IMG/VR virus record: IMGVR_UViG_2541047126_000026 | DNA: 39,662 nucleotides | Direction: 5' to 3' (one strand) | Origin: a virus | Lineage: Duplodnaviria; Heunggongvirae; Uroviricota; Caudoviricetes | In this document: in pieces, positions 1 through 34,341 of the stretch | How positions within the stretch are numbered: the first letter of the stretch is position 1 | How the letters are laid out: the number at the start of each line of letters is the position of its first letter | Program-made: the position numbers and the translations under genes | The notes under the pieces: generated by a model | What the model saw: the letters and a program-made list of their open reading frames with translations, nothing else | Databases searched by the model: none | What the model was told of the DNA's origin: nothing

Positions 1-738
1 TCACCCAATCTCTTTCAAACCGGTTTTAACAGTTTGTGGTTTTGGGTAAGGCTGGACTTTGAATAGCTTTGTGTTGAGGCGTTTTCTGGCCCTCTTGTTC
101 AGAAACCGGATGTAACGAAACTGTCGGAACTTATGAACACTGGCTCTGTCGATATTAGCCCTCAGATGTTCACCTCGTTGTCCGCCTCGTTTAATGGCAT
201 TCCTGCAAATCTCGTGATACCACTCGCCATCAAGTTCATAGAATGTTGATTCATGGCTGCCTACATAATCAAAATTGCTTGCCTGATACACGACACCAAG
301 ACAGCCACAACGCTCATCTGCAAACGACTGAACCCACTGTACCTGCGGATAAAGCTGTCTGATTAGCTTGAGCGCGTAACTGATTGCCCTTGATTCGGAG
401 TTTCTCGGCATACAGTCATGCAGCCATAGCCGGTTAAGCTCCATATATTCTCGGTTCTGCGTACCCGTTACGACGCGTGCACCACTGTTTGGGTTAAGGG
501 CGTAACCCCATTGCATTACGCCAACAAGTTCCCGTTCTGAAAATATGCCCAGATGAAGGTAGGAGTTATTTACGAAACGGTGGCTGTAATGTTTATTGAC
601 GATGACCAGTCTGGCCAGCCAGCAACTTATTGTCTCAACCCGCAACTCACGGGAGCCATAACCAACGATATTGTCGTTATAGCGAATAAGTTCAGGCGTG
701 CTGATGATTCGGGATGTGACTTGCTTTCTGTTCCCCAC
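1..738 (-). CDS. mom: Mom DNA modification protein
   Basis: 245 aa ORF; last gene of the Mu-ordered block, overlapped at its 5' end by a Com-like zinc-finger ORF; the sequence is consistent with Mom as I recall it. Confidence 0.75.
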
Positions 739-892
739 GACAGGATTTCCTTGTGTATGTGGGGTGCTCTGTGGCGCTCGGAGATGTGATTTGATTGAGG
801 GTTTTACAGCGCGGACATTTTACTTCCAGATAACTGAAACTGGCCCGTGCCAGTAGCTTATTGCAGTGTCGGCACCGTATGTTTCGATACAT
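692..892 (-). CDS. com: Com zinc-finger translational activator of mom (track ORF 692..937; ATG at 892 preferred)
   Basis: Contains [10 protein letters not shown]...VKCPRCK, a CxxC...CxxC finger like Mu Com; overlaps mom start by about 46 nt; AGGAGG about 10 nt upstream of the ATG at 892. The track start at 937 is TTG. Confidence 0.7.
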
Positions 893-937
893 GGCCGCAT
901 AACCTCCTGCTTTGTTGTTGATGCCTTTCTCATGCAA

Positions 938-1115
938 TCGATCGACAAAAACGATCGATTCGATTTGTTTAATTGATACAACAAATAGATTGAAAAGTCA
1001 TCAACAATGATTCAGGTAGGTGATTATTTACTTAAAGAAAACGAAGAGTTAGGTGGTGAAAACGATCATAAAATGATCATTTTATTGACTTTTTATATAG
1101 TGAAGGTAGGATCGC
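938..1115 (-). promoter_or_regulatory. Probable com-mom promoter/regulatory region with clustered GATC sites
   Basis: AT-rich; five GATC within about 175 bp (near 940, 953, 1064, 1075, 1110), two pairs in palindromes (CGATCG-acaaaaa-CGATCG and GATCA-taaaa-TGATC). Mu Pmom is regulated through upstream GATC methylation. Confidence 0.4.
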
Positions 1116-1305
1116 GCGTATATGTAGTATGTTTCAAATCAATGGGATACTACATACATAAAGAGCGACCCAGATAGCGCGAACTATTCTGGGCCGATTT
1201 AGACAATTTTGCATCAATGCTTTACTTCGAGCTCGTGGCGTATCCTATGATATTCCCCGGTCTCCTGTAAAGCAGAGATGCATAAAAAGGAGATCTTTAT
1301 CATGG

Positions 1306-1473
1306 ATGAAAGAGCCTGTTTGCCCTGCCTGTAAGACTCCCTTACAGCTCATCTATCGCCGTTCTCGATCTCAAAATGGCAAGACATACAAACCCAAAAA
1401 TGCTTCCTGTTTCAGGATGCTGATATGTCCTGCCTGTTCTCCCAGGAGGGAAAATACACAAAACGTGCATTAA
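1306..1473 (+). CDS. Candidate small zinc-ribbon protein (55 aa), not in the ORF track
   Basis: Hand translation MKEPVCPACKTPLQLIYRRSRSQNGKTYKPKNASCFRMLICPACSPRRENTQNVH; two CPAC motifs about 31 residues apart; AAGGAG 13 nt upstream (suboptimal spacing). Opposite strand to its neighbours. Confidence 0.25.
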   Translation: MKEPVCPACKTPLQLIYRRSRSQNGKTYKPKNASCFRMLICPACSPRRENTQNVH

Positions 1474-1511
1474 CAAACTCACCCGGCAGGGAAACCTGCC
1501 GGTCGGTATTG

Positions 1512-1757
1512 TTACATCATAGTACCGTCAGTTCCGGGCTGAACCGGCTCTGGTTGCTCTACGGGTTGAGGATCATTTTCCGTGCTGTTTTCAGCCGGAG
1601 AACGGCCAACCATTCGGGCCAGCACTTCATCAACATATGCGTCGATTTGTGCCTCAAAATCCTTGCGAACCTGCGCCTTCAGCACGCGGTTCACTTCTTC
1701 AGAATAAAGTGCCTGTTTGACAAGCTCTTCAGTAACCGTGCCTTTAATCTCTGGCAT
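1512..1757 (-). CDS. Hypothetical acidic 81 aa protein, cargo
   Basis: AAGGAG about 7 nt upstream of ATG; hydrophilic, Glu/Pro-rich C-terminus; no family recognised. Confidence 0.5.
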   Translation of the reverse strand: MPEIKGTVTEELVKQALYSEEVNRVLKAQVRKDFEAQIDAYVDEVLARMVGRSPAENSTENDPQPVEQPEPVQPGTDGTMM

Positions 1758-1792
1758 GAATATTCTCCTTTTGCAGGTATATTGCCCCGTTA

Positions 1793-1975
1793 TCAGAGCG
1801 GGGTCGGGTCGTTTGGGGATGACGGTGCCTGTGCTGTTTTACTGAGTTTTTCAGCTGCCGCATCATCAATTTTACGGCGAATATAATTTCTGATGACCTT
1901 ATAACCGCCGCTCACCAGATATAACGCACTGACCACTGCGCAGAAATAAAGCAGCATTGTATGAACGAATGTCAT
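1793..1975 (-). CDS. Hypothetical small membrane protein (60 aa), cargo
   Basis: Hydrophobic N-terminal segment LLYFCAVVSALYLVSGG followed by a basic stretch; plausible RBS upstream. Confidence 0.45.
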   Translation of the reverse strand: MTFVHTMLLYFCAVVSALYLVSGGYKVIRNYIRRKIDDAAAEKLSKTAQAPSSPNDPTPL

Positions 1976-2087
1976 ATAACCTTACCTTTGATATTGACTA
2001 CATAATTCGTTATCGGGTAAAAACATCGAAGCGACTGATAACCACTCCTTCGGGAGTATTTTTATTTTCCTTTATGGGTTAGGTAGC

Positions 2088-2125
2088 TCCCGCCAGCCAT
2101 ATCATGACCGGCGGGATTTTTTTAT
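2088..2125 (+). terminator. Hairpin plus T-run (CCCGCC...GGCGGG then ATTTTTTTA); loop is long, terminator-like on the plus strand only
   Basis: 6 bp GC stem with about 15 nt loop followed by a T-run; on the minus strand it is preceded by an A-run, so it does not look like the esterase terminator. Confidence 0.25.
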
Positions 2126-4161
2126 TCTGTTACCGCTTTTTTCACTTCCACCACAATGCTGTCAATCAGCACCGGGTAAGTTGCATTTTTTGTGATATCC
2201 GTTACGCGGAGTTTGTCCACCGGGAAAGTTCCTACTGGTGACTGCGTCAGGGTAAACGCGGCACCATCCTGACCATCAATAACCGGAATAACCTGAAGGC
2301 TGTTATTTCCTGCAAAACGGAAGGCCAGCGTATGCCATTCATTATCAAATGCACCAAAGGTTCCCAGTTTCTGGTTATTTGTTGCCACTTTTGCATTGTG
2401 GTACATCACATTCAGGTCTTTTGCGTCTGTCTGGATGTAGAACGATGCCAGCAGATTATTCCCTGCATCCCCTGTCAGGGTGACACCCTGCGGCAGAGAG
2501 GAAACCGGCCAGTAAAGCGCCATGACATACTGGTTTGCCACCAGGTCGCCCGGTACTTTAAAACGACAACTGATTAAACCACCATTTTTCAGCAGTTCAG
2601 CACCAGTACCGGCATCATGATCCAGATACCAGGATGATTTACCTGTTTCCTTGGTCAGTTTCATTGCCTTACCACCTGTGCCTCCTGCATCACTGATAAT
2701 TTCAGCTTTACCGCCAGCCGGCTCCCAGCCCTGGGCTTTCAGATTTCCTTCTGACTCACTGACACGATAAGACAGCAGTGTTGTGGTTACTGCTTCAGTT
2801 TCTGAAGGTGACGGCACTGGTGCTTCAGTTTCAGAAGATGGAACATCGGCTTTTACTGTGGTTCGCCCCGCATGAGTCAGAACTGCCGTGGCCAGACGGT
2901 CGGAAATAATCCCACGACGTGCCCATGAACTGAAATGGCTGGCCCGGTCCGCAGATGTCCAGGTGGCGGCACTGTTACGCCACGTTGAGCCGTAATAACC
3001 AATGGATTCAATATCCGGGTCTTCTGCCGGATTGTTGGTGGGTACATTCGCGTCATTTTCATCTGTCATTAATGGAACGAAATGAATGTTTTTATCTGTT
3101 TTGTTTTTGTAGCCGCCATAGATTGCCTGGTATGCCGGTTCATTTTTCTGTTTCCAGAAATACGTGGTATCGCCACAAATCCACGGAACGCCAGCAGCAC
3201 TGCCACCGGTACACTGTTCCGCCTGTTCAGCCAGGTCTGCGCGGAATTTTTCCACCATCGCCAGAAACAGCGCGGAATGCTCCGTCGGCTTCGCATCAAT
3301 ATCAAACTCGCCCTGCATCCACACCACAGCAAGCAGGCGGTTTTTCGGGTTCTTCGCCAGTGCCGCTTTTGTCCGGCTGATTAAGTCCTTATACAGCGGC
3401 TTATCCACACCCCAGCGGGCTGAGTCCTCTGAAGCACCCGTGCTGTCACTGTACGTGCCGTCAGCACCCGCCGTGAATGCAGAACCACCACGGCAGCAGG
3501 GAACCAGCAGAATCCCCGCATCTGCCGGAATAAACGGCAGCAGTTTTTTGGCAATGTGAAGCCCCTGACCCACGGTGCCATATTGCCCTTTAGCCACATC
3601 CGCTTTCGGGTGATTTTTTCCACTCATATCCTGCACATCATGCAGACAGTGGTCGGCCAGAATGATGTCGTTATACTGACAGGCTTTACCTCCCGGCGTG
3701 ACTGTACTGCGACGGGCTAACTGCATAATACGCGGTTCGGGGCGGTCATATGTCTCCGGCAGTGGCAGACCTTCACCGTAAGCCATACCGTTTGACTGAC
3801 CAGCAAGAACCACCACGTAATACCAGGAAGGGGAGCTGGAAGCAGTTTCATTTCCTGACGGACGGGTATGTGTTTCAGCATTATCCCAGTCTGACGGTTC
3901 AGCAGTGCCGGCAACATCAGCACTTAACGGAATGACCGCACCAATACCCGCTCCGGTAATTTCCACACTCGGATCACCGGATACTGGCCTTACCCACAGG
4001 CAATCCCGTGTATTAAAACTGATGAGACAGTCAGCAAATGTCATTCCTCCTTTTGTTTCGACCGGAGGAAAGGGAGCCTCAAGAAATGCCGCTGTACCAC
4101 CGGAAACTTTAACAGTAAAGTTTCCGGGCATTGATGATAGTTGAACCCATTTGGACGTCAT
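2122..4161 (-). CDS. Prophage NanS-p-like SGNH-hydrolase O-acetylesterase (N-terminal domain, esterase core, C-terminal lectin-like domain)
   Basis: 679 aa; GQSN motif in VVVLAGQSNGMAYGEG as in SASA/DUF303 sialate O-acetylesterases; extra C-terminal domain of about 250 aa; sits between gin and com where Mu has no gene. Confidence 0.65.
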   Translation of the reverse strand: MTSKWVQLSSMPGNFTVKVSGGTAAFLEAPFPPVETKGGMTFADCLISFNTRDCLWVRPVSGDPSVEITGAGIGAVIPLSADVAGTAEPSDWDNAETHTRPSGNETASSSPSWYYVVVLAGQSNGMAYGEGLPLPETYDRPEPRIMQLARRSTVTPGGKACQYNDIILADHCLHDVQDMSGKNHPKADVAKGQYGTVGQGLHIAKKLLPFIPADAGILLVPCCRGGSAFTAGADGTYSDSTGASEDSARWGVDKPLYKDLISRTKAALAKNPKNRLLAVVWMQGEFDIDAKPTEHSALFLAMVEKFRADLAEQAEQCTGGSAAGVPWICGDTTYFWKQKNEPAYQAIYGGYKNKTDKNIHFVPLMTDENDANVPTNNPAEDPDIESIGYYGSTWRNSAATWTSADRASHFSSWARRGIISDRLATAVLTHAGRTTVKADVPSSETEAPVPSPSETEAVTTTLLSYRVSESEGNLKAQGWEPAGGKAEIISDAGGTGGKAMKLTKETGKSSWYLDHDAGTGAELLKNGGLISCRFKVPGDLVANQYVMALYWPVSSLPQGVTLTGDAGNNLLASFYIQTDAKDLNVMYHNAKVATNNQKLGTFGAFDNEWHTLAFRFAGNNSLQVIPVIDGQDGAAFTLTQSPVGTFPVDKLRVTDITKNATYPVLIDSIVVEVKKAVTE

Positions 4162-4260: not shown

Positions 4261-4821
4261 TTATTTTTCCGAAACGCTCGCAGGATAATAACGATAAAGG
4301 GTTGAAAGACCGATATCAAAAATAAGTGCCACCTGTCTTCGACTGACACCCCCGGCCAGTAAACGCCCGACCTGCTCGTATTGTTCCTGCGTGAGACGGC
4401 GGGGTCTGCCGCCGGTTCGTCCCCTTTCACGGGCAGCTGCAAGACCAGCCCGTGTCCGTTCGACAATTAATTCACGCTCCATTTCTGCCAGCGCACCCAT
4501 TATGTGAAAAAAGAAGCGCCCCATGGGGGTTGACGTATCAATGTTGTCAGTAAGACTACGAAAATTTATCCCCTGTTGCTGTAATTCATCTGTCAGCGCA
4601 ACAAGGTGGCGCATACTGCGCCCCAGCCTGTCCAGTTTCCAGACCATCAGCGTGTCACCGGGTTTTAGTTTCTTCAGTGCCCGCTTCAGTCCCGGCCGCT
4701 GTGTCGTTTTACCACTCATTTTGTCTTCAAAAATCTGCTCACATCCTGCACATTCCAGCGCATTTCTTTGTAAACCGGTGTTCTGGTCATTTGTTGATAC
4801 GCGTATATAGCCAATCAGCAT
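4261..4821 (-). CDS. gin: Gin/Hin/Pin/Cin-family serine DNA invertase
   Basis: 186 aa; N-terminus MLIGYIRVSTNDQNTGLQRNAL with catalytic Ser; very close to Mu Gin as I recall it; lies next to the invertible segment. Confidence 0.92.
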   Translation of the reverse strand: MLIGYIRVSTNDQNTGLQRNALECAGCEQIFEDKMSGKTTQRPGLKRALKKLKPGDTLMVWKLDRLGRSMRHLVALTDELQQQGINFRSLTDNIDTSTPMGRFFFHIMGALAEMERELIVERTRAGLAAARERGRTGGRPRRLTQEQYEQVGRLLAGGVSRRQVALIFDIGLSTLYRYYPASVSEK

Positions 4822-4851: not shown

Positions 4852-5271
4852 TGCCTTTTAAAACAGATATACGGTATCCCTGAAAACCTCGGTTTACGGG
4901 AAACGGTAAATAAGGCTGCTGATGCCCTGCCATCGGGTGGAACCGCCGTGGCAGCAAACAGACTCGCCACCCCAAGAAATATTAATGGTGTTCCTTTTGA
5001 CGGAACGCTGGATATCAACATCACGTCAGGAATGACGCAGTCAACCGCAGATGGCCGGTATGTACAGAATGTTCAGCTTGGAGCACAGAGCTATCATTCA
5101 CCCGGAGGCAATGAAATGTCATGGAATTACAGCGCACCTTCCGGTTGTATGCTTTCCGGAATTAACGTGCAGGAAACCGGCTCCCGGTCTGCGGACAATA
5201 TCGGTGGGGTCTATTATCGCCCGGTTCAGATTTATATTAATAATGCCTGGAGAACGGTAAGTTCAGTGTAA
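4852..5271 (+). CDS. Silent alternative tail-fiber C-terminal cassette (S'v-like)
   Basis: Encodes ...GLRETVNKAADALPSGGTAVAANRLATPRNINGVPFDGTLDINITSGMTQSTADGRYVQ..., homologous to the C-terminal part of the expressed fiber, then a divergent tip; wrong strand for late transcription in this orientation. Confidence 0.6.
   Translation, partial: CLLKQIYGIPENLGLRETVNKAADALPSGGTAVAANRLATPRNINGVPFDGTLDINITSGMTQSTADGRYVQNVQLGAQSYHSPGGNEMSWNYSAPSGCMLSGINVQETGSRSADNIGGVYYRPVQIYINNAWRTVSSV
4877..4902. other. gix-like crossover site 1, gin-proximal
   Basis: TCCCTGAAAACC-TC-GGTTTACGGGAA, an imperfect 26 bp palindrome resembling gix/hix; inverted relative to site 2; 27 bp (4889..4915) are identical to the reverse complement of 6239..6265. 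Confidence 0.6.
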
Positions 5272-5285
5272 ACCACAGAAAAGGG

Positions 5286-5304
5286 TGCTGAATGCACCCT
5301 CTGA
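5286..5304. terminator. Hairpin between the convergent S'v cassette and U
   Basis: AGGGTGC-tgaat-GCACCCT, perfect 7 bp stem; T-rich flank on the minus-strand reading. Confidence 0.35.
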
Positions 5305-5305
5305 A

Positions 5306-5827
5306 TTATTCCGGTTTTTCCGGCCAGGGAATCGCCTGGTAATGCCCCTCACTGGCAATATCATTAAAGTGCATTTCTTTAAGCTGTCGGATATACGCCA
5401 TCCAGCGCGTCAGCTGTAATTTATTTTCATCGCTAATCATGTCCAGTTTTAATTCTGTTTTCCAGTCATCCACGGTTTCGTTGGCTTCCTGGAGCAGCGA
5501 TGAGCGGCGATTTTCAGCAACCGTCTTCCAGTTTACCGGCACCTTTGATATCAGGCCATCAGAAAACTGCCAGTTACCGTCAATATTCACACCTTCCGGC
5601 AGTTCATCCACTTCAACAACAGTAAAACCTGCCGGATATAAAGCAGAGACATCTTCAGCAACAGAGCAGATAATACCCGTTACAGGCGAAATACAGAGTT
5701 TGTATTTCTTTGTGAAAAGCGGGATAGATTCATAAAAATCCCTTCCGTCCTCACTCTGGAAATACTGAACATCCTCACCATAGGGTTTGTGTTCCGGGTA
5801 ATATCGTTTTACGTTAATAAGCTCCAT
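5306..5827 (-). CDS. U: Tail fibre assembly protein (Mu U / Tfa-like); track ORF 5306..5938, internal Met start preferred
   Basis: Layout matches Tfa proteins (YPEHKPYGEDVQYFQSEDGRDFYE, PAGFTVVEVDELPEG, C-terminal PWPEKPE); AAGGTG RBS upstream of the MELINVKRYY start. Confidence 0.7.
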   Translation of the reverse strand: MELINVKRYYPEHKPYGEDVQYFQSEDGRDFYESIPLFTKKYKLCISPVTGIICSVAEDVSALYPAGFTVVEVDELPEGVNIDGNWQFSDGLISKVPVNWKTVAENRRSSLLQEANETVDDWKTELKLDMISDENKLQLTRWMAYIRQLKEMHFNDIASEGHYQAIPWPEKPE

Positions 5828-5906
5828 TATTTCACCTTGTTTTTGTTGAAAAGACAAAATCATCATATATTTATTCAGATAATCTGTTTTTTGAACTACT
5901 GCACTT

Positions 5907-6794
5907 TTATGCGCTGGAAGCTGTTTTCCACGAACCATCTATCAGAAACTGAACAGGTCGATAATATGCGGTTACCGTTGCATTACCATCACCAGCGACA
6001 TCAAGCCCTGTAAGTACGCATCCGTCAGGAACTTCAAAAATATTATATTGCATTCCAATCGTTGACCTTGAACCTCTTCGAATGCTTTGAACATAACGTG
6101 AGTCAGCCACAGACTGCGTCATCCCCGATGTAATATTTATATCCTGCGTTCCGTCAAATGGGACACCATTAATATTTTTTGGAGTGGCGAGTTTATTCGC
6201 TGCAACAGCCGTTCCGTTCGATGGCAGGGCATTCGCCGCCTTATTTACCGTTTCCCGTAAACCGACGTTATCGATAAAAGCGCCTTTATCCGGAATGTCT
6301 GCGCCGTTCTGCTCCCTGCGCAGGTAACGGTTATCACCTTCGCTTTTGCTGTAAACATCCAGATTATTACGGGCGGTTCCCGCATTCTCCAGGTCGGCAA
6401 GGTTCTGATCCTTCGCCAGAGCATTAACGTCACCGGGACCAAGACTGTTTTTTGTGGCAAGCGCCCCAAGACCAAGATAACCACGGGCAAGACGCTGGGC
6501 TTCCGCACCGGCATCAGCAATTTCTTTCAGGTTGTTTTTCCGGGAAAAGGCATTCGCAGCGATAATGGCTTTAATGGACAGCGTAAGCTGGTTTAACTGC
6601 GCCTTATCCGGCTGAATACTGGCTTCAGCCAGAATATTCAGCAGTTCGGCCTGGAGAATATTCAGCCAGTCCTGACCAATCCAGCTGATACCTTTTTGTC
6701 CGTCACCTTCGGTAAACCAGGTGGTGGTATTACTCTGCGCCGGTGCCAGCGCAGGCATATTCGCCACGCCGGAATTATTATCAACATGGAACAT
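5907..6794 (-). CDS. S: Tail fibre protein: constant part plus currently expressed variable tip (Mu S-like); track ORF extends to 6848
   Basis: Directly downstream of the gp48-like gene with TAATG stop/start overlap; C-terminal part lies inside the invertible segment and is homologous to the plus-strand cassette. Confidence 0.7.
   Translation of the reverse strand: MFHVDNNSGVANMPALAPAQSNTTTWFTEGDGQKGISWIGQDWLNILQAELLNILAEASIQPDKAQLNQLTLSIKAIIAANAFSRKNNLKEIADAGAEAQRLARGYLGLGALATKNSLGPGDVNALAKDQNLADLENAGTARNNLDVYSKSEGDNRYLRREQNGADIPDKGAFIDNVGLRETVNKAANALPSNGTAVAANKLATPKNINGVPFDGTQDINITSGMTQSVADSRYVQSIRRGSRSTIGMQYNIFEVPDGCVLTGLDVAGDGNATVTAYYRPVQFLIDGSWKTASSA
6252..6277. other. gix-like crossover site 2, inside the tail-fibre gene
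   Basis: TTCCCGTAAACC-GA-CGTTATCGATAA; left half identical to the half-site of site 1; inverted orientation relative to site 1. Confidence 0.6.
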
Positions 6795-19079: not shown

Positions 19080-20203
19080 TATTGCATTTCCTCTTTCATT
19101 TTCAGGAACTCGGCTTCGGTTTTACCCAGCAGATGGGCAGCGGCGATATCTTCAGCCGACAGCGCAGCGGTGGCAGTCTTTTTATCCGGCACGGTCACGG
19201 TGTCGGTCTGAAGGCCGGTCAGGGCCGCAACCGGCTGTCGGGCGTCAAGCTGTGCAGAAAGTGCCGCAACACCAATCTGCCCACCCAGTTGTTCCAGATA
19301 GCCGCGTTCGCTTTTGAAGATGCGCCCTTCGGATTCAGCCTTGTCCAGCACCTGCTCCAGCGTGGTGCTGCCGTGCTGTGCCGACAGCGCAACGTATTCG
19401 GTACGCAGGGCGTTATACGTTTCAACGGGCACGTATTTCGTCAGATCAATACTGCCGCCAGCCGGTGTGCCTTTTGCGGTTTCCAGCTCTGCCGACAGAC
19501 TGGCGACCTGTGTTTTCAGGTTGTCGTGTGCATCCGCGCGGGTTTTGATCCCTGTGAGGGCAGACAGCGCCGCCGTGCCCAGCTCCGGCGTAAATTCGTC
19601 ACCGTCAGCCACGGTCAGACCGAGCGCTGTCAGCAACTGGCGTAATTGCTCATTCATGGAGGTATCCTTTAAAGGAGGGTTTAAGGCGTTATAAAGGTCA
19701 TCCGCCGACAGCGCGGCGACAGGATTCATGCCGGTCAGACCGGGGTCACCGGTAATAGCCAGCATCCGAAGTTCGACAGGTTCGCCGGTGCTCTCGTCAT
19801 AGCCAATCACCGGTGAAAACCAGGGGAATTCGTTATTACGCAGATGTTCAAGGGCCGGAGGGTTCCACTTCGGGCGCACCTCGAAGCCACGCTCTTCACT
19901 GAAGCGGAAGTTTTCCGGTGAAGCCATCACAAAACCGGCAGCCGGTGCCGGATGCCCCTTAATCAGGGTCTGGTGGTTGTAGTCAATTTTCACCGGCTGA
20001 TTGAGCGCCACAACCCGGGAGACCATGCGCTCAACGGCTGCATGGTTGATCAGCCAGCCCTCGGCCGGTTTTTCCGGGCGACCGTCACGGGCCTTTACCC
20101 GACCGGCTGGCATGATCTGACACCAGTCACCGTCCCCGTCTGCGGACAGGCTGATGGCATTCAGAATGGCATAAGCAAGTTTGGGCGTGTTTTTCGTCTT
20201 CAT
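19079..20203 (-). CDS. I: Head protease/scaffold protein (Mu I-like)
   Basis: 374 aa; position between G and T. Confidence 0.8.
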   Translation of the reverse strand: MKTKNTPKLAYAILNAISLSADGDGDWCQIMPAGRVKARDGRPEKPAEGWLINHAAVERMVSRVVALNQPVKIDYNHQTLIKGHPAPAAGFVMASPENFRFSEERGFEVRPKWNPPALEHLRNNEFPWFSPVIGYDESTGEPVELRMLAITGDPGLTGMNPVAALSADDLYNALNPPLKDTSMNEQLRQLLTALGLTVADGDEFTPELGTAALSALTGIKTRADAHDNLKTQVASLSAELETAKGTPAGGSIDLTKYVPVETYNALRTEYVALSAQHGSTTLEQVLDKAESEGRIFKSERGYLEQLGGQIGVAALSAQLDARQPVAALTGLQTDTVTVPDKKTATAALSAEDIAAAHLLGKTEAEFLKMKEEMQ

Positions 20204-20379
20204 TCCGGCAGCATAAGCCGGGAATTTTCAGGGCGGGTTTTGCGGGATTTCAGGAAGTGCTTCCAGGGGAAAAATACAAAGGCGCTTCACGCAGATTTTA
20301 AAGCCCGTTAAATTCAGGTTAGAAAATCACGACACGCGCCTGAAGGGGGTAAGGTAATGCATTTGCATACCTTAAACAA
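20204..20379 (-). promoter_or_regulatory. Intergenic region upstream of I; candidate activator-dependent late promoter (P_I equivalent)
   Basis: 176 bp non-coding gap in an otherwise overlapping gene array, at the position of Mu P_I; no motif verified. Confidence 0.3.
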
Positions 20380-27605: not shown

Positions 27606-28106
27606 TCAGACTTTCGGCAAGTCGTAGCGACATAACCATTCATCCGCCGAACGGCGGGCCTCAAGGCCGGGGAGTTTCACCCCCTTTGAATAAATCCAGC
27701 GGATATACTGCTTACAGGACGCGGGCATCTGCCCGGCATTGATCAGGCGCAGAAGCGTGGAGTTGCGAAAGTTCGTTTCACCGGCCCAGAAGATCCACGA
27801 AGCCAGCGCCACCGTCTGACCACGGGTAAGCGGCACCTGAACACGCCGATCAATGGCCGCAAAGGCCCATTTCATGTCCTTTTCCAGTAGTTCCAGGCAT
27901 TCTTCATCTGTCAGGGTCATACCCGGTTTCACATCCGGGCCGGTATGGCCGTAACAGATGGTGGGTGTACCGGTGGGATCGATATACGTGGAGTTTTCTT
28001 TCCCTTCCCAGTAACCGGTGTAATGCGTGGCAATCGTGAACGTCCCGGCACCGGCCAGAACAAGGGCAATCAGCTTTTTACGCAGTGGTGCGGGGAGTTT
28101 TGGCAT
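27606..28106 (-). CDS. lys: Endolysin, lysozyme family with N-terminal signal-anchor (SAR type)
   Basis: 166 aa; hydrophobic N-terminus KLIALVLAGAGTFTIA; catalytic E...D...T spacing in YWEGKENSTYIDPTGTPT as in T4-lysozyme-like enzymes. Confidence 0.8.
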   Translation of the reverse strand: MPKLPAPLRKKLIALVLAGAGTFTIATHYTGYWEGKENSTYIDPTGTPTICYGHTGPDVKPGMTLTDEECLELLEKDMKWAFAAIDRRVQVPLTRGQTVALASWIFWAGETNFRNSTLLRLINAGQMPASCKQYIRWIYSKGVKLPGLEARRSADEWLCRYDLPKV

Positions 28107-28177
28107 TGTTACGCTGTCTCATGATGTTCTCTGAGTCAGCGTAACGGTGAAGGAGAGGCGGCAGGCTTTGCGGAATA

Positions 28178-28603
28178 TCAGAAAAGTGGCGGTTGCGTTC
28201 TTGCCAGATGCAGACGGCGCTGTTCGCGTATGACGGTATAAATCTGGGTTTCTGACATCCGGTAATGGCGGCGAAGGGATTCAATTTTCTCGCCCCGGTC
28301 CCAGCGCGAAAATATCTCATTGTTTCGCAGCTCGGCAAAGAGAGATTCCCCGACCGGCAGGTAATAACCCCGTCCGCCCATATAGGCTGCCTGAGCCGCA
28401 GCCACCTTGCGTGCCAGTTTACCGGCCAGTACCGGCTCAATCCCCTGACGCTGAAGTTCTGCGCCGGTGACTTCAACCAGTTCTGACAGGGTCCGCGGCC
28501 AGTTCTTTTTGAGAACATCATCAGGGATGTCATCAAGGCGGTCGATAAGGGCGTGCAGTTGCTCACTGTCACCACCAAACATGCTCATCTGAGTTTCTGC
28601 CAT
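28178..28603 (-). CDS. Mor/C-family transcriptional activator of middle/late genes
   Basis: 141 aa; C-terminal HTH (ESLRRHYRMSETQIYTVIREQRRL) and overall layout of Mu Mor/C; located between GemA and lys. Confidence 0.75.
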   Translation of the reverse strand: MAETQMSMFGGDSEQLHALIDRLDDIPDDVLKKNWPRTLSELVEVTGAELQRQGIEPVLAGKLARKVAAAQAAYMGGRGYYLPVGESLFAELRNNEIFSRWDRGEKIESLRRHYRMSETQIYTVIREQRRLHLARTQPPLF

Positions 28604-29662: not shown

Positions 29663-30029
29663 TTGCTTTATCCTCCATACTGGACAAAATCATCTGTATT
29701 AATGTCGGGCGTGGAGATATACGCATTTCATTAAGCGTCTGAAGGGCAGCAACAGCTGCCTGTTTATCGGTGCCTTTGGCAATTTCCGCAAGAGAATGCA
29801 CAATCCATAACGGACTTAACGCCACGACTGAATCCAGAATCATGTCATCCATAATAATTTCTGACACATCCCGCTTATCACATTCCTTATCCATAAAAGA
29901 AACGATTTTTTCCACATCTTCCGGTTTCATGCCTCCGGCGATAAGAAATTTGCGATACTCATAAGACGATCTTAATTCAATACTCATATTCATCTCCTGT
30001 AACTCTGACAAGGACGTGATTTTTCTCAT
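29655..30029 (-). CDS. Hypothetical protein (124 aa)
   Basis: ORF in an operon-like array; acidic; no family recognised. Confidence 0.45.
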   Translation of the reverse strand: MRKITSLSELQEMNMSIELRSSYEYRKFLIAGGMKPEDVEKIVSFMDKECDKRDVSEIIMDDMILDSVVALSPLWIVHSLAEIAKGTDKQAAVAALQTLNEMRISPRPTLIQMILSSMEDKANE

Positions 30030-30211
30030 TTATGTTTTCCAGTAATACGGATATATATGTCGATAAGAAGATTCATAATAAACAGGAAGAGCGACATCCT
30101 GATAAAGAACCAAATATCTGGCATCATGGACAGGTTTCCTGTAATCGCAAATATAAAACCAACCCCCAACACCGGAACGAAAATTGCGAAAAATACAAGT
30201 CTCTTTATCAT
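30026..30211 (-). CDS. Hypothetical small membrane protein (61 aa, two predicted TM helices)
   Basis: LVFFAIFVPVLGVGFIFAI and SLFLFIMNLLIDIYI hydrophobic segments. Confidence 0.45.
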   Translation of the reverse strand: MIKRLVFFAIFVPVLGVGFIFAITGNLSMMPDIWFFIRMSLFLFIMNLLIDIYIRITGKHK

Positions 30212-30759
30212 GGCGTTAACTCCCGTAATACAGCGTCCTCGGCAGTCCGGCGATGGTGATAAATAAAATTCACCGTACTCTCGGATAATTCAAATTTCTC
30301 GCCTATTTCCCGGAAGGTAAGACGTCGTGGTGATTCAGCATCCCGTAATTCACGAATAAGATGAACATCATCGTCAGGTATACGGGTGAAGGGCAGCAAT
30401 TCTCCGTATTTTTTCATGCTTACGCCAATATATCGCGCCCGATTGTGGACAGAATCCCGGTCTCGCCCCAGATATTCTCCTATTTGCTTACCGGTCATCG
30501 TTCTGGCATTTTTTCGGATAAATTTATCTTCATCATGTTTAAATCTTGGACGTTTGCATTTGAGCAACTCCGGGTAAGTACCGCGTAATAAAACAATCCG
30601 GTTATGTACACCCCAGAAACTTCTTTTTACCCTGACAGCAATATCCTTAACCGGGGTGGATGGATAAAGCGCAATCAGCAGCGCATCTTCTTCAGGTGTC
30701 CACGCACGGACATGAGCAGGTGCCTGACCTTTTCGCCCCATGGGTTGTAAAATCATCAT
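30208..30759 (-). CDS. Hypothetical DNA-binding protein with Myb/SANT-like and HTH-like segments (183 aa)
   Basis: WTPEEDALLIALY resembles a SANT/Myb helix; two more HTH-like stretches (TGKQIGEYLGRDRDSVHNR and LTFREIGEKFELSESTVNFI). Confidence 0.45.
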   Translation of the reverse strand: MMILQPMGRKGQAPAHVRAWTPEEDALLIALYPSTPVKDIAVRVKRSFWGVHNRIVLLRGTYPELLKCKRPRFKHDEDKFIRKNARTMTGKQIGEYLGRDRDSVHNRARYIGVSMKKYGELLPFTRIPDDDVHLIRELRDAESPRRLTFREIGEKFELSESTVNFIYHHRRTAEDAVLRELTP

Positions 30760-30762
30760 ACA

Positions 30763-31278
30763 TCACCCCCTGACTCGCTTTTCAGCAGCATAAAACTCAT
30801 CAGACAGAATTTCGGTCATTTTCTGATTTGCGGGTTTTACGCCGCACTCAAGGTAAATCACATCGTCAACGCAGAACCACTTCACAGGGCCAAACATGAT
30901 TGCCGAGAAATCAATACCCAGCCAGAACAACAGTGCATCGGTTCTGGCATACGTGACGGGCGAATATTCACGCCACAGACTGTTAAGTTCGTCAGAGGCA
31001 ACGCGCAGGGCTTTGGGAATACGTGATGTGCGCGGTGTGCAGCTCCAGCCATTCGACGCAGTCGGTTTTCGCCATAAGTCGCGATGAAAAGGATATTTGT
31101 CATCCATAAAGCGCAGCCCTTTAAAACAAAAGCCACTGATACCGGATACAAATACCGACCGGCACGCAACATTCAGCACGGCCTCAAGGCGTTTTGCCTC
31201 ATCCTTAACTTTCTGGCAGTCCTGCTGATATTTTTGCCACGCGGCCAGCGCGGAAGGGTTTGATGTTTTAAAGAACAT
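30763..31278 (-). CDS. Hypothetical protein (171 aa)
   Basis: ORF with 1 nt stop/start overlap with the upstream gene; no family recognised. Confidence 0.45.
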   Translation of the reverse strand: MFFKTSNPSALAAWQKYQQDCQKVKDEAKRLEAVLNVACRSVFVSGISGFCFKGLRFMDDKYPFHRDLWRKPTASNGWSCTPRTSRIPKALRVASDELNSLWREYSPVTYARTDALLFWLGIDFSAIMFGPVKWFCVDDVIYLECGVKPANQKMTEILSDEFYAAEKRVRG

Positions 31279-31811
31279 TACGCCACCTCCGCAGATATCC
31301 CGGCAGGCGCGGCCGTCCGGTCAACAATCAGGTAACGCAGAACGCGCGAGGTGATATTCCAGCCGCTTAAACCGCAGATAATGACACCCAGGCGTATGTC
31401 GATATACGCCATCACAAACTGGGGCACGCCTTCTTTCATGGCCTGCTCATCAACTTCAGCCACCACATAAACGGTTTCACAGGTCAGAACGCCCTGAGCA
31501 AATTCCCACGCCATTGACGGAATATCATGCCCCTCAATCCACGGCAGGGATTTTCTGAAGCTGCACCACTGAACATCATCAGCCGCACCTTCCTGGCTGC
31601 ATTTGCGACGAACCGGCTGCACCGGGCGGGGACGCGGAATATCATAAAAACCGTTACATTCCGTCAGCACCCCGGCATCGACCGCATCACGCAGAAAATA
31701 AACCATCGAGGATGGCGGCATATTCATTTTTTCAGCCAGAATGCCGCAGGTCAGACGCCCGTAAATACTCAGCCAGTTTTTAACCCCTTCAAGCACTTTT
31801 GCATCAATCAT
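31278..31811 (-). CDS. Hypothetical protein (177 aa), possible N-terminal winged helix
   Basis: ORF in the early operon; no family recognised. Confidence 0.45.
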   Translation of the reverse strand: MIDAKVLEGVKNWLSIYGRLTCGILAEKMNMPPSSMVYFLRDAVDAGVLTECNGFYDIPRPRPVQPVRRKCSQEGAADDVQWCSFRKSLPWIEGHDIPSMAWEFAQGVLTCETVYVVAEVDEQAMKEGVPQFVMAYIDIRLGVIICGLSGWNITSRVLRYLIVDRTAAPAGISAEVA

Positions 31812-31814
31812 GAA

Positions 31815-32357
31815 TTATTCCTCCGTCAGCGCCACATATTCAGAATGTTTAATCTCCTGGCATTCTTCAGGAATACCCCCTTTTATTTCCCTGCCATAAG
31901 CGCCTACTTTAAACACCACGCACAGGGCATCACGGGAGAGCGACGGGGTCCACCAGGAGTCCATGTTAAACATGGAGGGGATTCTCATTACCCCCAGCTT
32001 TTCACAGAGCCAGACAAGGAAATCAGGACGCTTTCTTAACTCGCGTTCAGCGGCTTCAATCATTGCGGCAATCGCCGGTCCTTCAGGGCATGACTCATCA
32101 GGTCTGGCAATAAAGCACGGTCCGTCCCCGATAAAAGCCACATCATCGCGCTTACGCCAGCCCGCAGGCAGAGCACCAGAAAAATAAAACTCACTGATTA
32201 CGTCCATGGCAAACGGCTTTAAGCGCAATCCGGCAGCGCCTGTATTTTTCAGTAATGCCCGAAGAATACTGTTGCGTAGCGGTAAAACAGTCTGTTGATA
32301 TTTGGTGAAATATTTATTTGTCTGCACACGGTCTAATTTGAAATAAAAATATGCCAT
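31815..32357 (-). CDS. Hypothetical protein (180 aa)
   Basis: ORF directly downstream of gam; no family recognised. Confidence 0.45.
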   Translation of the reverse strand: MAYFYFKLDRVQTNKYFTKYQQTVLPLRNSILRALLKNTGAAGLRLKPFAMDVISEFYFSGALPAGWRKRDDVAFIGDGPCFIARPDESCPEGPAIAAMIEAAERELRKRPDFLVWLCEKLGVMRIPSMFNMDSWWTPSLSRDALCVVFKVGAYGREIKGGIPEECQEIKHSEYVALTEE

Positions 32358-32454
32358 ATATCCTGTTCCTTATTTTCAGTTTACAGGCGCAGGCAGTCCC
32401 CTGACGCGAGCGCCATACTTAAAACGATGTGATATTTAAAGATTTAATGCGGTG

Positions 32455-32985
32455 TTATTTATTCAGTCCGGCGTCCTGTTCAAAAGGCTCGACATAAAAA
32501 CTTTCAGCGCCTTTATTCACCTTAATACCGGCAATGCCTTTCACTGCATCCGGCTCCGCCAGGACCGCTTCCTTGTTCACTTCCTCTTTCGTGCGGATGA
32601 ATCGCTCAAGCCCCATACGGCGCAGCATTTCAATCACACCTTCCACATCACGGCTGACGCTGCATGATGGATTTCCCAGCCGCCATGACACTGTTCCGGT
32701 GGTCAGATTGGCTGTTTTGGTTTTGCCGCCGTTCGTCAGCTCATCGCGGTTGGTTTTGCACCAGTCCTGAATCCCCTTAAAAAGCACTTTGATTTCTTTT
32801 TTAAGGTTTTCAATCTGCGGCGTATAACGGGCGGTGATTTCTGCCACTTCATCATTCATCGCTGTTTCCAGGCGCAGCGCCTCTCGCTGAATATCGCCCA
32901 GGGTGCGGATATCGCGGCTGACCTCTTCACGGGTCTGCGGTGCCGCCTCTGCTGCGGCCTTTAATTTTGTAACGCGTTTTGCCAT
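32455..32985 (-). CDS. gam: Gam host-nuclease inhibitor (Ku-like DNA end binding)
   Basis: 176 aa; strong match to Mu Gam as I recall it (LGDIQREALRLETAMNDEVAEIT, NRDELTNGGKTKTANLTTGTVSWR, FIRTKEEVNKEAVL). Confidence 0.85.
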   Translation of the reverse strand: MAKRVTKLKAAAEAAPQTREEVSRDIRTLGDIQREALRLETAMNDEVAEITARYTPQIENLKKEIKVLFKGIQDWCKTNRDELTNGGKTKTANLTTGTVSWRLGNPSCSVSRDVEGVIEMLRRMGLERFIRTKEEVNKEAVLAEPDAVKGIAGIKVNKGAESFYVEPFEQDAGLNK

Positions 32986-32996
32986 TTTGTTTTTCC

Positions 32997-33290
32997 TTAT
33001 TGCAGTGTGCCTGATGCTTTATGCACGCGGTGGCGTTTAATGATGGCATCCGCCCCAAAAGCCTGTACAGATGCCTGAAATTCCGCTGAGAGAAACTGAA
33101 TAAGTTCAGGACTGTGATACTGGAGAATACTTGCATAAACGTCACAGAGTGACGTCGGCCTGTTATTCGTATCACGTTCTGTTTTTACATCCACACCAAT
33201 CTTTTCATGCACTTCAACACAGTCATTGCCTGCCGGTTTTTCGTCATGCGAAACATGCTTAAATTCAAAAATAACGCGTACTTTGCTCAT
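32997..33290 (-). CDS. Hypothetical small early protein, paralog A; track ORF to 33317
   Basis: Begins MSKVRVIFEFKHV at the internal Met; shares its N-terminal motif with the adjacent upstream gene. Confidence 0.45.
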   Translation of the reverse strand: MSKVRVIFEFKHVSHDEKPAGNDCVEVHEKIGVDVKTERDTNNRPTSLCDVYASILQYHSPELIQFLSAEFQASVQAFGADAIIKRHRVHKASGTLQ

Positions 33291-33294
33291 GGAA

Positions 33295-33567
33295 TTACCC
33301 CTGCTGATTAAATTCATTACCTTTAATAACCCCGGAACGCATGCTCATATCTTTCATGAGCGCACTGGCTTTCATTGCCACAAGTTCAGCAAAGTCTCTG
33401 CTTTCCGCGAGCATAACCACCCCAAAAATCATGGCGGGTCCATCACCTTTCTGCTTTATCCCGGTTGAACGTATGTCCAGACTTACCCCCATGCGCACTG
33501 TTCCATCAGCGTTTTTATGGATAACGTGCTCCTTGTATTCGAAAATAATGCGTACGACTTTACTCAT
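33295..33567 (-). CDS. Hypothetical small early protein, paralog B (90 aa)
   Basis: Begins MSKVVRIIFEYKEHV; N-terminus paralogous to the downstream gene. Confidence 0.45.
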   Translation of the reverse strand: MSKVVRIIFEYKEHVIHKNADGTVRMGVSLDIRSTGIKQKGDGPAMIFGVVMLAESRDFAELVAMKASALMKDMSMRSGVIKGNEFNQQG

Positions 33568-33845
33568 CCTCTGGTCCTCGTTCTGTTTGGATAACTGACC
33601 CGGCGTCTGACCTCACGGCAGAACCGAATCATGGCATTAAAGGCTTCTTCCTCCGTCACCGCTTCCGGTATCCCCGGAACCAGTAACTGCTCCTGTTCAT
33701 CACGTCCATGACGCGCCATAACCTCAATCACATGCCGTACCGTGGCAGGCTTTCCGGCAACTATCGGCAATGCACCTTCCGGCAGGACGTAACCAAACTC
33801 AATAAGACCACTCGACCACGCCCATGCAATGAGATTTTTTTTCAC
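33564..33845 (-). CDS. Hypothetical early protein (93 aa)
   Basis: ORF in the early operon; synteny only. Confidence 0.4.
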   Translation of the reverse strand: MKKNLIAWAWSSGLIEFGYVLPEGALPIVAGKPATVRHVIEVMARHGRDEQEQLLVPGIPEAVTEEEAFNAMIRFCREVRRRVSYPNRTRTRG

Positions 33846-33846
33846 C

Positions 33847-34113
33847 TCACACCTCCCAGTAAACCGTGCAGCCGCTGATGCGGGTGGCCTTCACACGGCG
33901 GCGCAGGCCGTTGGTCTGTATGGTGATTTCAATTTCACCGGTTCCCTGCACGTTGCCTACCGGCGGCGTGGTTTTCAGTGCAAAACGTTGTGGGTAGCGC
34001 TTACTGCGTTCCAGTACCGCACCGGCAAGTTCGGTCAGACGGCGCGCGCTGTTCAGGGAGTCGAATAAATTCATTTTGTTACCGCAGGATTGCATATTCA
34101 TATAACACCTCAT
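33847..34113 (-). CDS. Hypothetical early protein (88 aa; start uncertain)
   Basis: ORF in the early operon; synteny only. Confidence 0.4.
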   Translation of the reverse strand: MRCYMNMQSCGNKMNLFDSLNSARRLTELAGAVLERSKRYPQRFALKTTPPVGNVQGTGEIEITIQTNGLRRRVKATRISGCTVYWEV

Positions 34114-34341
34114 TTAGCTGACTTGTTTCGCACCAACAGAACGGCATATTCCGCTGTAAACTTCTGTCGCACCTTCGCGATCAAGTCCGGCAGATATCAC
34201 CATTCGTGTGCGGTCATTAAATTCAAAAAGTAAATCGCCACATTCTTTATTTTCGGCCAGTGAAATCACCTTCACGTTATCGAAATTAACCAGGTAAAAG
34301 CGTCCGTAAATATCAGGAATATAAAATACCGCCATAATCAC
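34114..34341 (-). CDS. Small early protein at the Kil position (75 aa)
   Basis: Immediately downstream of B and the same size as Mu Kil (74 aa); positional inference only. Confidence 0.35.
   Translation of the reverse strand: MIMAVFYIPDIYGRFYLVNFDNVKVISLAENKECGDLLFEFNDRTRMVISAGLDREGATEVYSGICRSVGAKQVS

Follow-up and report, generated by a model that had tools for sequence, protein, structure and literature searches.

Mom is a toxic DNA-modification enzyme by which Mu-like phages escape many restriction systems. Regulation of mom by the host factors Dam and OxyR is a textbook example of methylation-sensitive repression. Pmom of phage Mu has three GATC sites; OxyR (MomR) represses the unmethylated DNA, C activates transcription, and Com controls translation. 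Transcription of Mu mom depends on Dam, and OxyR binds the DNA only in its un- or hemimethylated state. The Mu GATC pair that is homologous to the one discussed here is bound by OxyR and lies upstream of the C site. In the host gene agn43 (Ag43), the operator is located at or downstream of the transcription start. To our knowledge, Dam/OxyR control of mom is known essentially from Mu alone. Published work places Mu mom under Dam and OxyR control and reports its phase variation as not known (PMC2909390). In P22 gtr, every half-site with GATC has two of them at a distance of 13 bp, and OxyR no longer binds once they are methylated (PMC2909390). The signature of the pap system, finally, consists of two GATC boxes 102 bp apart and a PapI-like gene (PMC2909390).

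The window, i.e. the whole stretch of 39,662 nucleotides that was analysed, represents a Mu-like E. coli prophage in reversed reading, which is assigned from the literature context to the Sp18 type of O157 Sakai. Its com region is 100% identical to that of E. coli O157:H7 strain Z1825, and a 441-bp query spanning the control region retrieved close relatives from 233 of 5426 complete E. coli genomes, among which O157 and other STEC strains are frequent. The Gin-invertible G segment (window ~4882-6269) is oriented opposite to that of strain Z1825, which also carries an IS3 insertion that the window lacks. Structural genes are found to the right of gin, and those for the transposase close to the right end of the window (Table 1). 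The control region itself is an AT-rich intergenic stretch of 413 bp (893-1305) between the leftward com and a rightward zinc-ribbon gene. As in Mu, an overlapping com-mom operon lies directly downstream of the GATC region, which bears out the location upstream of com-mom given in an earlier note on this DNA. Mom of the window shares 79% identity with Mu Mom (BLASTP, E = 2e-141) and Com shares 47% with Mu Com (BLASTP, E = 7e-15); the com start codons are equivalent, the first Cys occupying position 7 of the window protein and position 6 of Mu Com. The Mor-family late activator C of Mu also has a counterpart, since the phage encodes a 141-aa homologue with 39% identity to Mu C and 27% to Mor, the gene of which precedes lys as in Mu. 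It is the only Mor/C-family gene annotated in the window, versus two in Mu. The regions upstream of lys and I (28093-28180 and 20193-20260, minus strand) have in common, by eye, the motif TCCGCAAARCC-N20-TAYGCT, which may provide the resident C homologue with a binding site and a -10 box and which differs from the ATAACC-type C sites of Mu.

Table 1. Coordinates of genes and control elements in the window, ordered from left to right.
Feature	Position	Strand	Remarks
mom	1-738	-	245 aa, overlaps com end
com	692-892	-	ATG at 892
com RBS AGGAGG	903-908 (908-903)	-	
Variable stretch between operator and RBS	923-935	-	window reads GCATGAGAAAGGC
Proximal palindrome AATCGATCG/ACAAAAA/CGATCGATT	936-960		perfect, 25 bp, two Dam sites 13 bp apart
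OxyR-like extended site, 46 bp	941-986	-	14/20 to ATAGnTnnnAnCTAT-N16-ATAGnTnnnAnCTAT
Half-site H3 ATCGTTTTTGTCGAT	955-941	-	16 bp after H2; 7/10; GATC at both ends
Half-site H2 ATTTGTTGTATCAAT	986-972	-	GATC-free
Candidate com-mom promoter ATGACT (1001-996), 17 bp, TATCAA (978-973)	973-1001	-	by eye, in nearly invariant sequence
Half-site H1 ATTGTTGATGACTTT	994-1008	-	22 bp upstream of H2
Candidate C-type site ATAATCACCTACCTG	1013-1027	-	resembles C-site part of Mu Plys ATAATCCCGCACCTG, 3 mismatches
Distal palindrome AAAACGATCAT-AAA-ATGATCATTTT	1059-1083		GATC 1064 and 1075, 11 bp apart
Sigma-70-like promoter TTGACT-16-TAGGAT	about 1085-1113	+	away from com, toward zinc-ribbon ORF
Mini transcription unit	1160-1271	-	sigma-70-like TTTACA-18-TAGGAT (1271-1242), invariant CGAAGTAAAGCATTGATGC
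Zinc-ribbon ORF, CPxC...CPxCSP	1306-1473	+	55 aa; divergent from com; far boundary of control region
Cargo block	1512-4161	-	nanS-p-like sialate O-acetylesterase (SASA + DUF6645, 679 aa), DUF1378, DUF826
gin	4261-4821	-	
C/Mor-family gene	28178-28603	-	141 aa, directly before lysozyme gene

Within this intergenic region, GATC occurs at 940-943, 953-956, 1064-1067, 1075-1078, and 1110-1113. With five sites in 174 bp, this is the densest GATC cluster of the whole window, and the earlier claim of five sites within about 175 bp holds in full. The same is true for the two palindromes that were said to contain four of them, as both were found exactly as described: CGATCG-N7-CGATCG (939-957) inside the proximal palindrome and GATCA-N5-TGATC (1064-1078) within the distal one, a palindrome with 11-bp arms and one mismatch. 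The statistical significance of the cluster by count is moderate. Over the whole window, GATC is under-represented, with 126 sites versus 155 +/- 11 expected, and in 21% of trials with uniform placement of 126 sites, an equally dense cluster arises at some position of the window. For the AT-rich segment (31% GC), dinucleotide-preserving shuffles lead to 1.1 expected sites and a probability of 0.0014 for at least five. A GATC-free stretch of 4.2 kb is present in the early region (29972-34178). The strongest evidence against chance is comparative rather than based on the count, and it is valid for the proximal pair only. The cluster is a composite of two separate parts, which are best considered one after the other.

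The proximal palindrome matches GATC sites II and III of Mu mom at an equal spacing of 13 bp. In the Mu mom control region (AF083977), which reads cgacGATCgaatcaattaaatcGATCggtaatacaGATCgattatgccccaataacc...taagat, the GATCs follow each other at distances of 18 and 13 bp and lie at about -87, -69, and -56, as deduced from the -10 box and the promoter feature of the record. The corresponding window sequence is gtatcaattaaacaaatcgaatcGATCgtttttgtcGATCgattgc. Common to both are the palindrome AATCGATC-N9-GATCGATT with its 13-bp spacing as well as an upstream ATCAATTAAA motif that is, however, shifted by 8 bp in the window. In a Smith-Waterman comparison, the proximal pair is the best match to the Mu control region within the 413-bp intergenic region; its score of 28 was reached in none of 500 shuffles when the proximal 108 bp were considered and in 2.4% when all 413 bp were. 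An equivalent of Mu site I was not found, as the window reads AATT 18 bp upstream of the pair. Instead of the complete Mu set (I-III; 18 + 13 bp), the window only has the pair 953/940 with its 13-bp distance.

The window was further scanned for pairs of OxyR dimer half-sites (consensus ATAGnTnnnAnCTAT) separated by N16, corresponding to the extended binding mode, or by N7, with a maximum score of 20. H3 has the form ATCG-N7-CGAT, i.e. a single OxyR half-site bracketed by the two Dam sites, and H2 is placed 31 bp upstream of it. Together, they form the only N16 match of at least 14/20 in the 39.6 kb (986-941). The only N7 match of at least 14/20, also at 14/20, is made up of H1 and H2 (1008-972); this full OxyR-like site is free of GATC and would be insensitive to methylation. 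For comparison, the Mu region with the three GATCs scores 13/20 (N7) and 14/20 (N16), so that the 46-bp OxyR-like site is another likeness between the two phages. Against shuffles of the intergenic region, the 14/20 matches have P values of 0.03-0.04 each (N16: 0.04) and 0.007 jointly, and against shuffles of the proximal 138 bp of 0.002-0.004 (N16: 0.002). Consensus matches of 13-14/20 in AT-rich DNA are weak, and such a match does not prove OxyR binding.

The arrangement also resembles that of P22/Salmonella gtr, where two GATCs likewise lie 13 bp apart in one OxyR half-site (window H3, 7/10) and the half-sites are spaced for extended, reduced-form binding, three of them (H1, H2, H3) following in a row in the window (PMC2909390). 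If the window start lay near the pair, the operator would overlap the promoter region in both systems. They differ in that gtr has GATC pairs in half-sites A and C, whereas those of the window are confined to one of three, and in that the three gtr half-sites are equally spaced (~32 bp, inferred from GATC coordinates), compared to 22 and 31 bp in the window. With agn43, the window may share a single OxyR operator with Dam sites that acts as a pure repressor site, possibly at or after the start, while agn43 is a host gene with three GATCs. Moreover, gtr is phase-variable with an activating OxyR position and agn43 undergoes heritable ON/OFF switching, OxyR shielding the GATCs from Dam in such switches, whereas the window is known from its sequence alone. 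A pap-type Lrp-Dam switch was considered as well, given the GATCs in T-rich contexts (GATCGTTTT, GATCATTTT) and their two groups about 110-135 bp apart; it was rejected, as the groups in the window are 111-135 bp apart rather than 102 bp and the annotation shows no PapI-like gene nearby. The palindrome sequence was not found in any paper, and the methylome and Sp18 papers give no site-level data.

Comparison with relatives sets the proximal pair apart. The 32 loci of the window class comprise 17 distinct upstream sequences, in which a block at ~987-936 is nearly invariant; it coincides with H2 to H3, and both proximal GATCs are fully invariant. Changes within the block are limited to single bases at 972, 968, 966, and 962 (each in a minority) and at outer-arm position 939 (one sequence). 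The 13 bp beyond it toward com (935-923), by contrast, show the lowest conservation within the proximal region. In the JE86 subclass, the divergent gene is a different one and the distal sequence is unrelated, but ~125 bp upstream of com are common, including the block.

For a wider footprint, a search with a Mom profile against one genome per species and IMG/VR gave 92 loci, 85 of which were usable. A 13-bp GATC pair is located upstream of com in 60 of these 85 mom loci and an 18-19-bp pair in 48. The loci with the 13-bp pair span about nine sequence classes that can otherwise barely be aligned. Several patterns can be distinguished: 18+13 in the Mu type and several enterobacterial genera, 13 alone in the window type, 18 alone in the type of locus L058, and 31+13 in Edwardsiella and loci L047, L048, and L056. 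Two half-sites separated by N16 score 13-15/20 in six further classes, those of L046, L047, L056, L012, L058, and L011. Since the pair recurs across classes with changed arms, it is the pair and not the hairpin arms that is conserved. GATC is missing altogether from the 200 bp before com in four loci, namely those of Endobugula and Parathalassolituus, both marine gammaproteobacteria, and the viral contigs L097 and L100; the alphaproteobacterial mom locus of Azospirillum has one. In L014, L015, L016, L096, L097, and L100, of which the named ones are marine gammaproteobacteria, the GATC pair is absent upstream of com, and a different, conserved leader-like pattern CACAGTG..CACTGTGAACC..AAGGCT..(GC hairpin)..AGCCTATCA is common to these loci.

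The three distal GATCs have a different context. The distal palindrome is separated by 2 bp from the -35 box of the rightward sigma-70-like promoter, and GATC 1110-1113 overlaps the -10 box. This promoter is conserved in strain M18 and in L046 and L047, with an invariant -35 box and the -10 sequences TACGAT (M18), TAAGAT (L046), and TATAAT (L047). The distal pair, on the other hand, is absent from the JE86 subclass, L046, and L047, and half of it is lost in M18. No OxyR-like match was detected at the distal palindrome, whose spacing of 11 bp does not match that of an OxyR half-site. Because conservation of the palindrome is limited to the window subclass and L047 has lost GATC 1110, the distal sites appear to form the other arm of a divergent region; from their sequence context, all three would belong to the rightward zinc-ribbon promoter and not to the conserved mom control. 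They might render this promoter Dam-sensitive.

The zinc-ribbon ORF has homologues with 43% identity at the equivalent position in L046 and L047; counterparts are located at 1295-1480 (minus strand) in L046 and at 1548-2012 in L101. PGAP annotates 1007-1473(+) as a frameshifted gene, which is intact at 154 aa in Sakai-type strains (phrog_26524). An explanation of this stretch as coding sequence was rejected, as homologues in diverged relatives exist for the last 55 aa only, while the 5' part overlaps conserved promoters and hairpins. The 154-aa or frameshifted extension across the regulatory region is thus probably an annotation artefact. Between the distal GATCs and the ORF, the arms of an inverted repeat at 1119-1158 (ATGTATGTAGTA...TACTACATATAC) are conserved in L046 and L047 with a differing loop of 16-19 nt, and the repeat is half deleted in M18. 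It is followed by the mini transcription unit at 1160-1271, a candidate for a ~75-nt sRNA or an insulating terminator. This conserved unit runs antisense to the 5'UTR of the zinc-ribbon gene, and both strain STEC1587 (L006) and L047 have two tandem copies of it; the arms of its stem-loop (1166-1196), after which a U-rich tail follows, differ among relatives yet stay complementary. The unit has no Rfam match, an Rfam search of 600-2200 returned nothing credible, and RNAalifold on the upstream terminator/sRNA candidate was uninformative due to an alignment disturbed by indels.

While the upstream neighbour of the Mu operon is gin, the window thus has a divergent zinc-ribbon gene, a terminator-containing region, and the cargo block. 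The cargo block lies between gin and com on the strand of com and is missing from Mu and L046. Its trio of esterase, DUF1378, and DUF826 is typical of Stx/lambdoid phage late regions. The earlier note had regarded the GATC region as sitting next to an inserted cargo block. The block is indeed extra relative to Mu; however, it is present in all E. coli relatives examined (36-100% identity) and parted from the GATC region by the divergent gene and by a hairpin at ~1483-1502 that looks terminator-like in both directions by eye, so that it is not a recent neighbour.

A further departure from Mu concerns the com-mom promoter. The proximal GATC pair is 27 bp closer to the com ATG than in Mu (-51 versus -78), and the 47 bp between the last GATC and the ATG consist of poorly conserved sequence and the RBS. 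In Mu, the space between pair and com accommodates the C site, a -35 box, a T-tract, a -10 box, and a 22-nt leader; in the 47 bp of the window, no ATAAYC motif, -35 box, T-tract, or -10 box was found. The promoter arrangement can therefore not be as in Mu, where the operator is upstream of a TTAT-N6-ATAA/ATAACC C site and a weak promoter, ~55-90 bp before the start. As neither a C-binding site nor a promoter fits between pair and com, the operator is probably situated over or after the promoter. Several candidates were examined. The nearly invariant ATGACT/TATCAA was noticed by eye; a sigma-70 consensus scan, in which no promoter near the operator qualified, missed it because TATCAA lacks the final T. 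ATGACT could instead serve as the -10 box of a C-type late promoter. The C-type site at 1027-1013 is partly conserved in relatives, but a search with the Mu Plys C-site motif gave three window matches versus 1.2 expected, which is not significant, and the motif shared by the lys and I upstream regions of the phage is absent upstream of com (by eye). With a C homologue that is only 39% identical and a different lys/I motif, this C-type site is doubtful.

In L046-L048, which belong to the 'near' class like the window, a TATACT/TATAGT -10 box follows 7-9 nt after the pair, which places the pair in the -35/spacer region. A corresponding promoter just downstream of the pair was rejected for the window, in which GAGAAAGG replaces TATACT in the most variable stretch, and is kept as a minor option. 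For com-mom transcription, a start at ~960-990 is favoured, with roughly even chances of being correct. A start at ~916 would be considerably less probable, and read-through from ~1235 less probable again, as would be a start elsewhere. Judging from the -10 box downstream of the pair in L046-L048, the promoter position is not conserved, and the favoured start could be wrong. Nonetheless, the candidate starts at ~989, ~966, and ~916 all put 941-986 between -70 and +49, which argues for methylation-sensitive OxyR repression by occlusion or roadblock.

Several other explanations have to be weighed. The earlier note had treated all five GATCs as one element. They could form a single extended Dam-sensitive com-mom region, with OxyR or another factor on both palindromes or a switch between alternative sites. 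In line with this, all five lie in a single intergenic region as a locally enriched cluster, 17 loci of the window subclass have retained the distal sites, and the distal pair is followed by ACCAC...T-tract...TAAGTA, which resembles Mu Pmom including its 44-nt distance. Yet, the latter similarity (1057-1031) is not significant (score 20, P = 0.25), and the corresponding promoter candidate (1057-1029, ACCACC-17-TAAGTA) was rejected, being conserved neither in M18 nor in JE86. The 11-bp spacing without an OxyR-like match, the flanking conserved promoter of opposite orientation, and the ten loci of the JE86 subclass, which retain com-mom and the proximal block but not the distal sites, also make the single element rather improbable, and this part of the earlier claim is not supported, the distal pair being lineage-specific. 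What stands is the proposal of a Mu-type logic with another site arrangement, but for the proximal pair alone, on the basis of its homology to Mu II/III, the OxyR half-site, and its invariance. The proximal palindrome might in turn be the operator of another dimeric protein, such as the C/Mor activator, a phage regulator, Fis, or SeqA, with the GATCs being incidental to an ATCGAT-type site. Its perfect 9-bp inverted repeat has more symmetry than OxyR needs, a start near 916 would give the palindrome the position of the Mu C site relative to com, and Fis binds to several sites at Mu Pmom (PMC3378877). The GATCs and their 13-bp spacing nevertheless persist across unrelated classes in which the arms change, for example to GATCaatattaccGATC in L048, the upstream regions of lys and I in this phage have no such palindrome, and the homologous Mu pair lies in the Dam/OxyR-controlled GATC region. 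We regard this explanation as unlikely.

Alternatively, the palindromes could act as RNA or terminator hairpins, either in the com mRNA leader or as a plus-strand stop for antisense transcription from the host flank. In a scan, 936-960 with the subsequent CGATTTGTTT was indeed recognised as a terminator-like element of the plus strand, and the RNA stem folds at -11.4 kcal/mol. However, the z-score amounts to only -1.8, the stem is not preserved where relatives retain the GATC pair, and the Mu homologue, which is upstream of the start inferred from the promoter annotation of the record, would not be transcribed, making a hairpin function very unlikely. That the cluster arose by chance or represents a non-functional relic in AT-rich intergenic DNA would agree with the frequency of equally dense clusters in uniform placements, the lost site I, and a prophage that may be decaying, as suggested by the frameshift annotated in the zinc-ribbon region. 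Given that the proximal GATCs and their surroundings are invariant in the 17 distinct sequences while the flanks vary, and that the 13-bp pair recurs in such a large share of the mom loci, this reading is highly improbable.

Taken together, the five GATCs are explained best, and with moderate confidence, by a two-part divergent control region that combines a relocated Dam-sensitive OxyR operator of com-mom with the distal sites of the zinc-ribbon promoter. From the sequence features, homology, conservation, and motif scores observed, we infer OxyR binding, Dam sensitivity, the promoter position, and the direction of the effect for the window. The stretch 941-986 with GATC 940 and 953 is most likely the Dam-methylation-sensitive OxyR operator of com-mom, and the Dam/OxyR logic has very probably been retained by two sites and not five. 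As long as these GATCs are un- or under-methylated, OxyR would bind and silence the toxic mom operon. An OxyR tetramer on 941-986 would occupy a repressing position and could block transcription by occlusion or as a roadblock. Full Dam methylation would then evict OxyR and allow late transcription, which may start at ~960-990 from ATGACT/TATCAA, possibly with the C-type site at 1013-1027. In this way, OxyR would act as at gtr or agn43 and not from upstream of the activator as in Mu.

Conceivably, OxyR could also choose between H1+H2, the methylation-insensitive position, and H2+H3, the methylation-sensitive one, in a gtr-like switch, with Mom being bistable or phase-variable and the distal sites putting the zinc-ribbon gene under coordinated Dam control. 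We consider this two-position model quite unlikely. If true, Mom modification would be bistable or phase-variable among lysogens or induced cells, and the three distal Dam sites would bring the divergent zinc-ribbon gene under coordinated Dam control.

With regard to the favoured two-part control region, the system of the window seems to be a refinement of a known mechanism and not a new one. By the comparison, a pair of Dam sites 13 bp apart that forms one OxyR half-site constitutes the conserved core of mom control in enterobacterial Mu-like elements. Lineages differ in how many extra sites they have and in where the promoter lies with respect to the operator. The common Sp18-type prophage may hence provide a natural test case, both for the sufficiency of two sites within a single half-site and for the question whether an operator placed at the promoter acts like that of Mu, agn43, or gtr.
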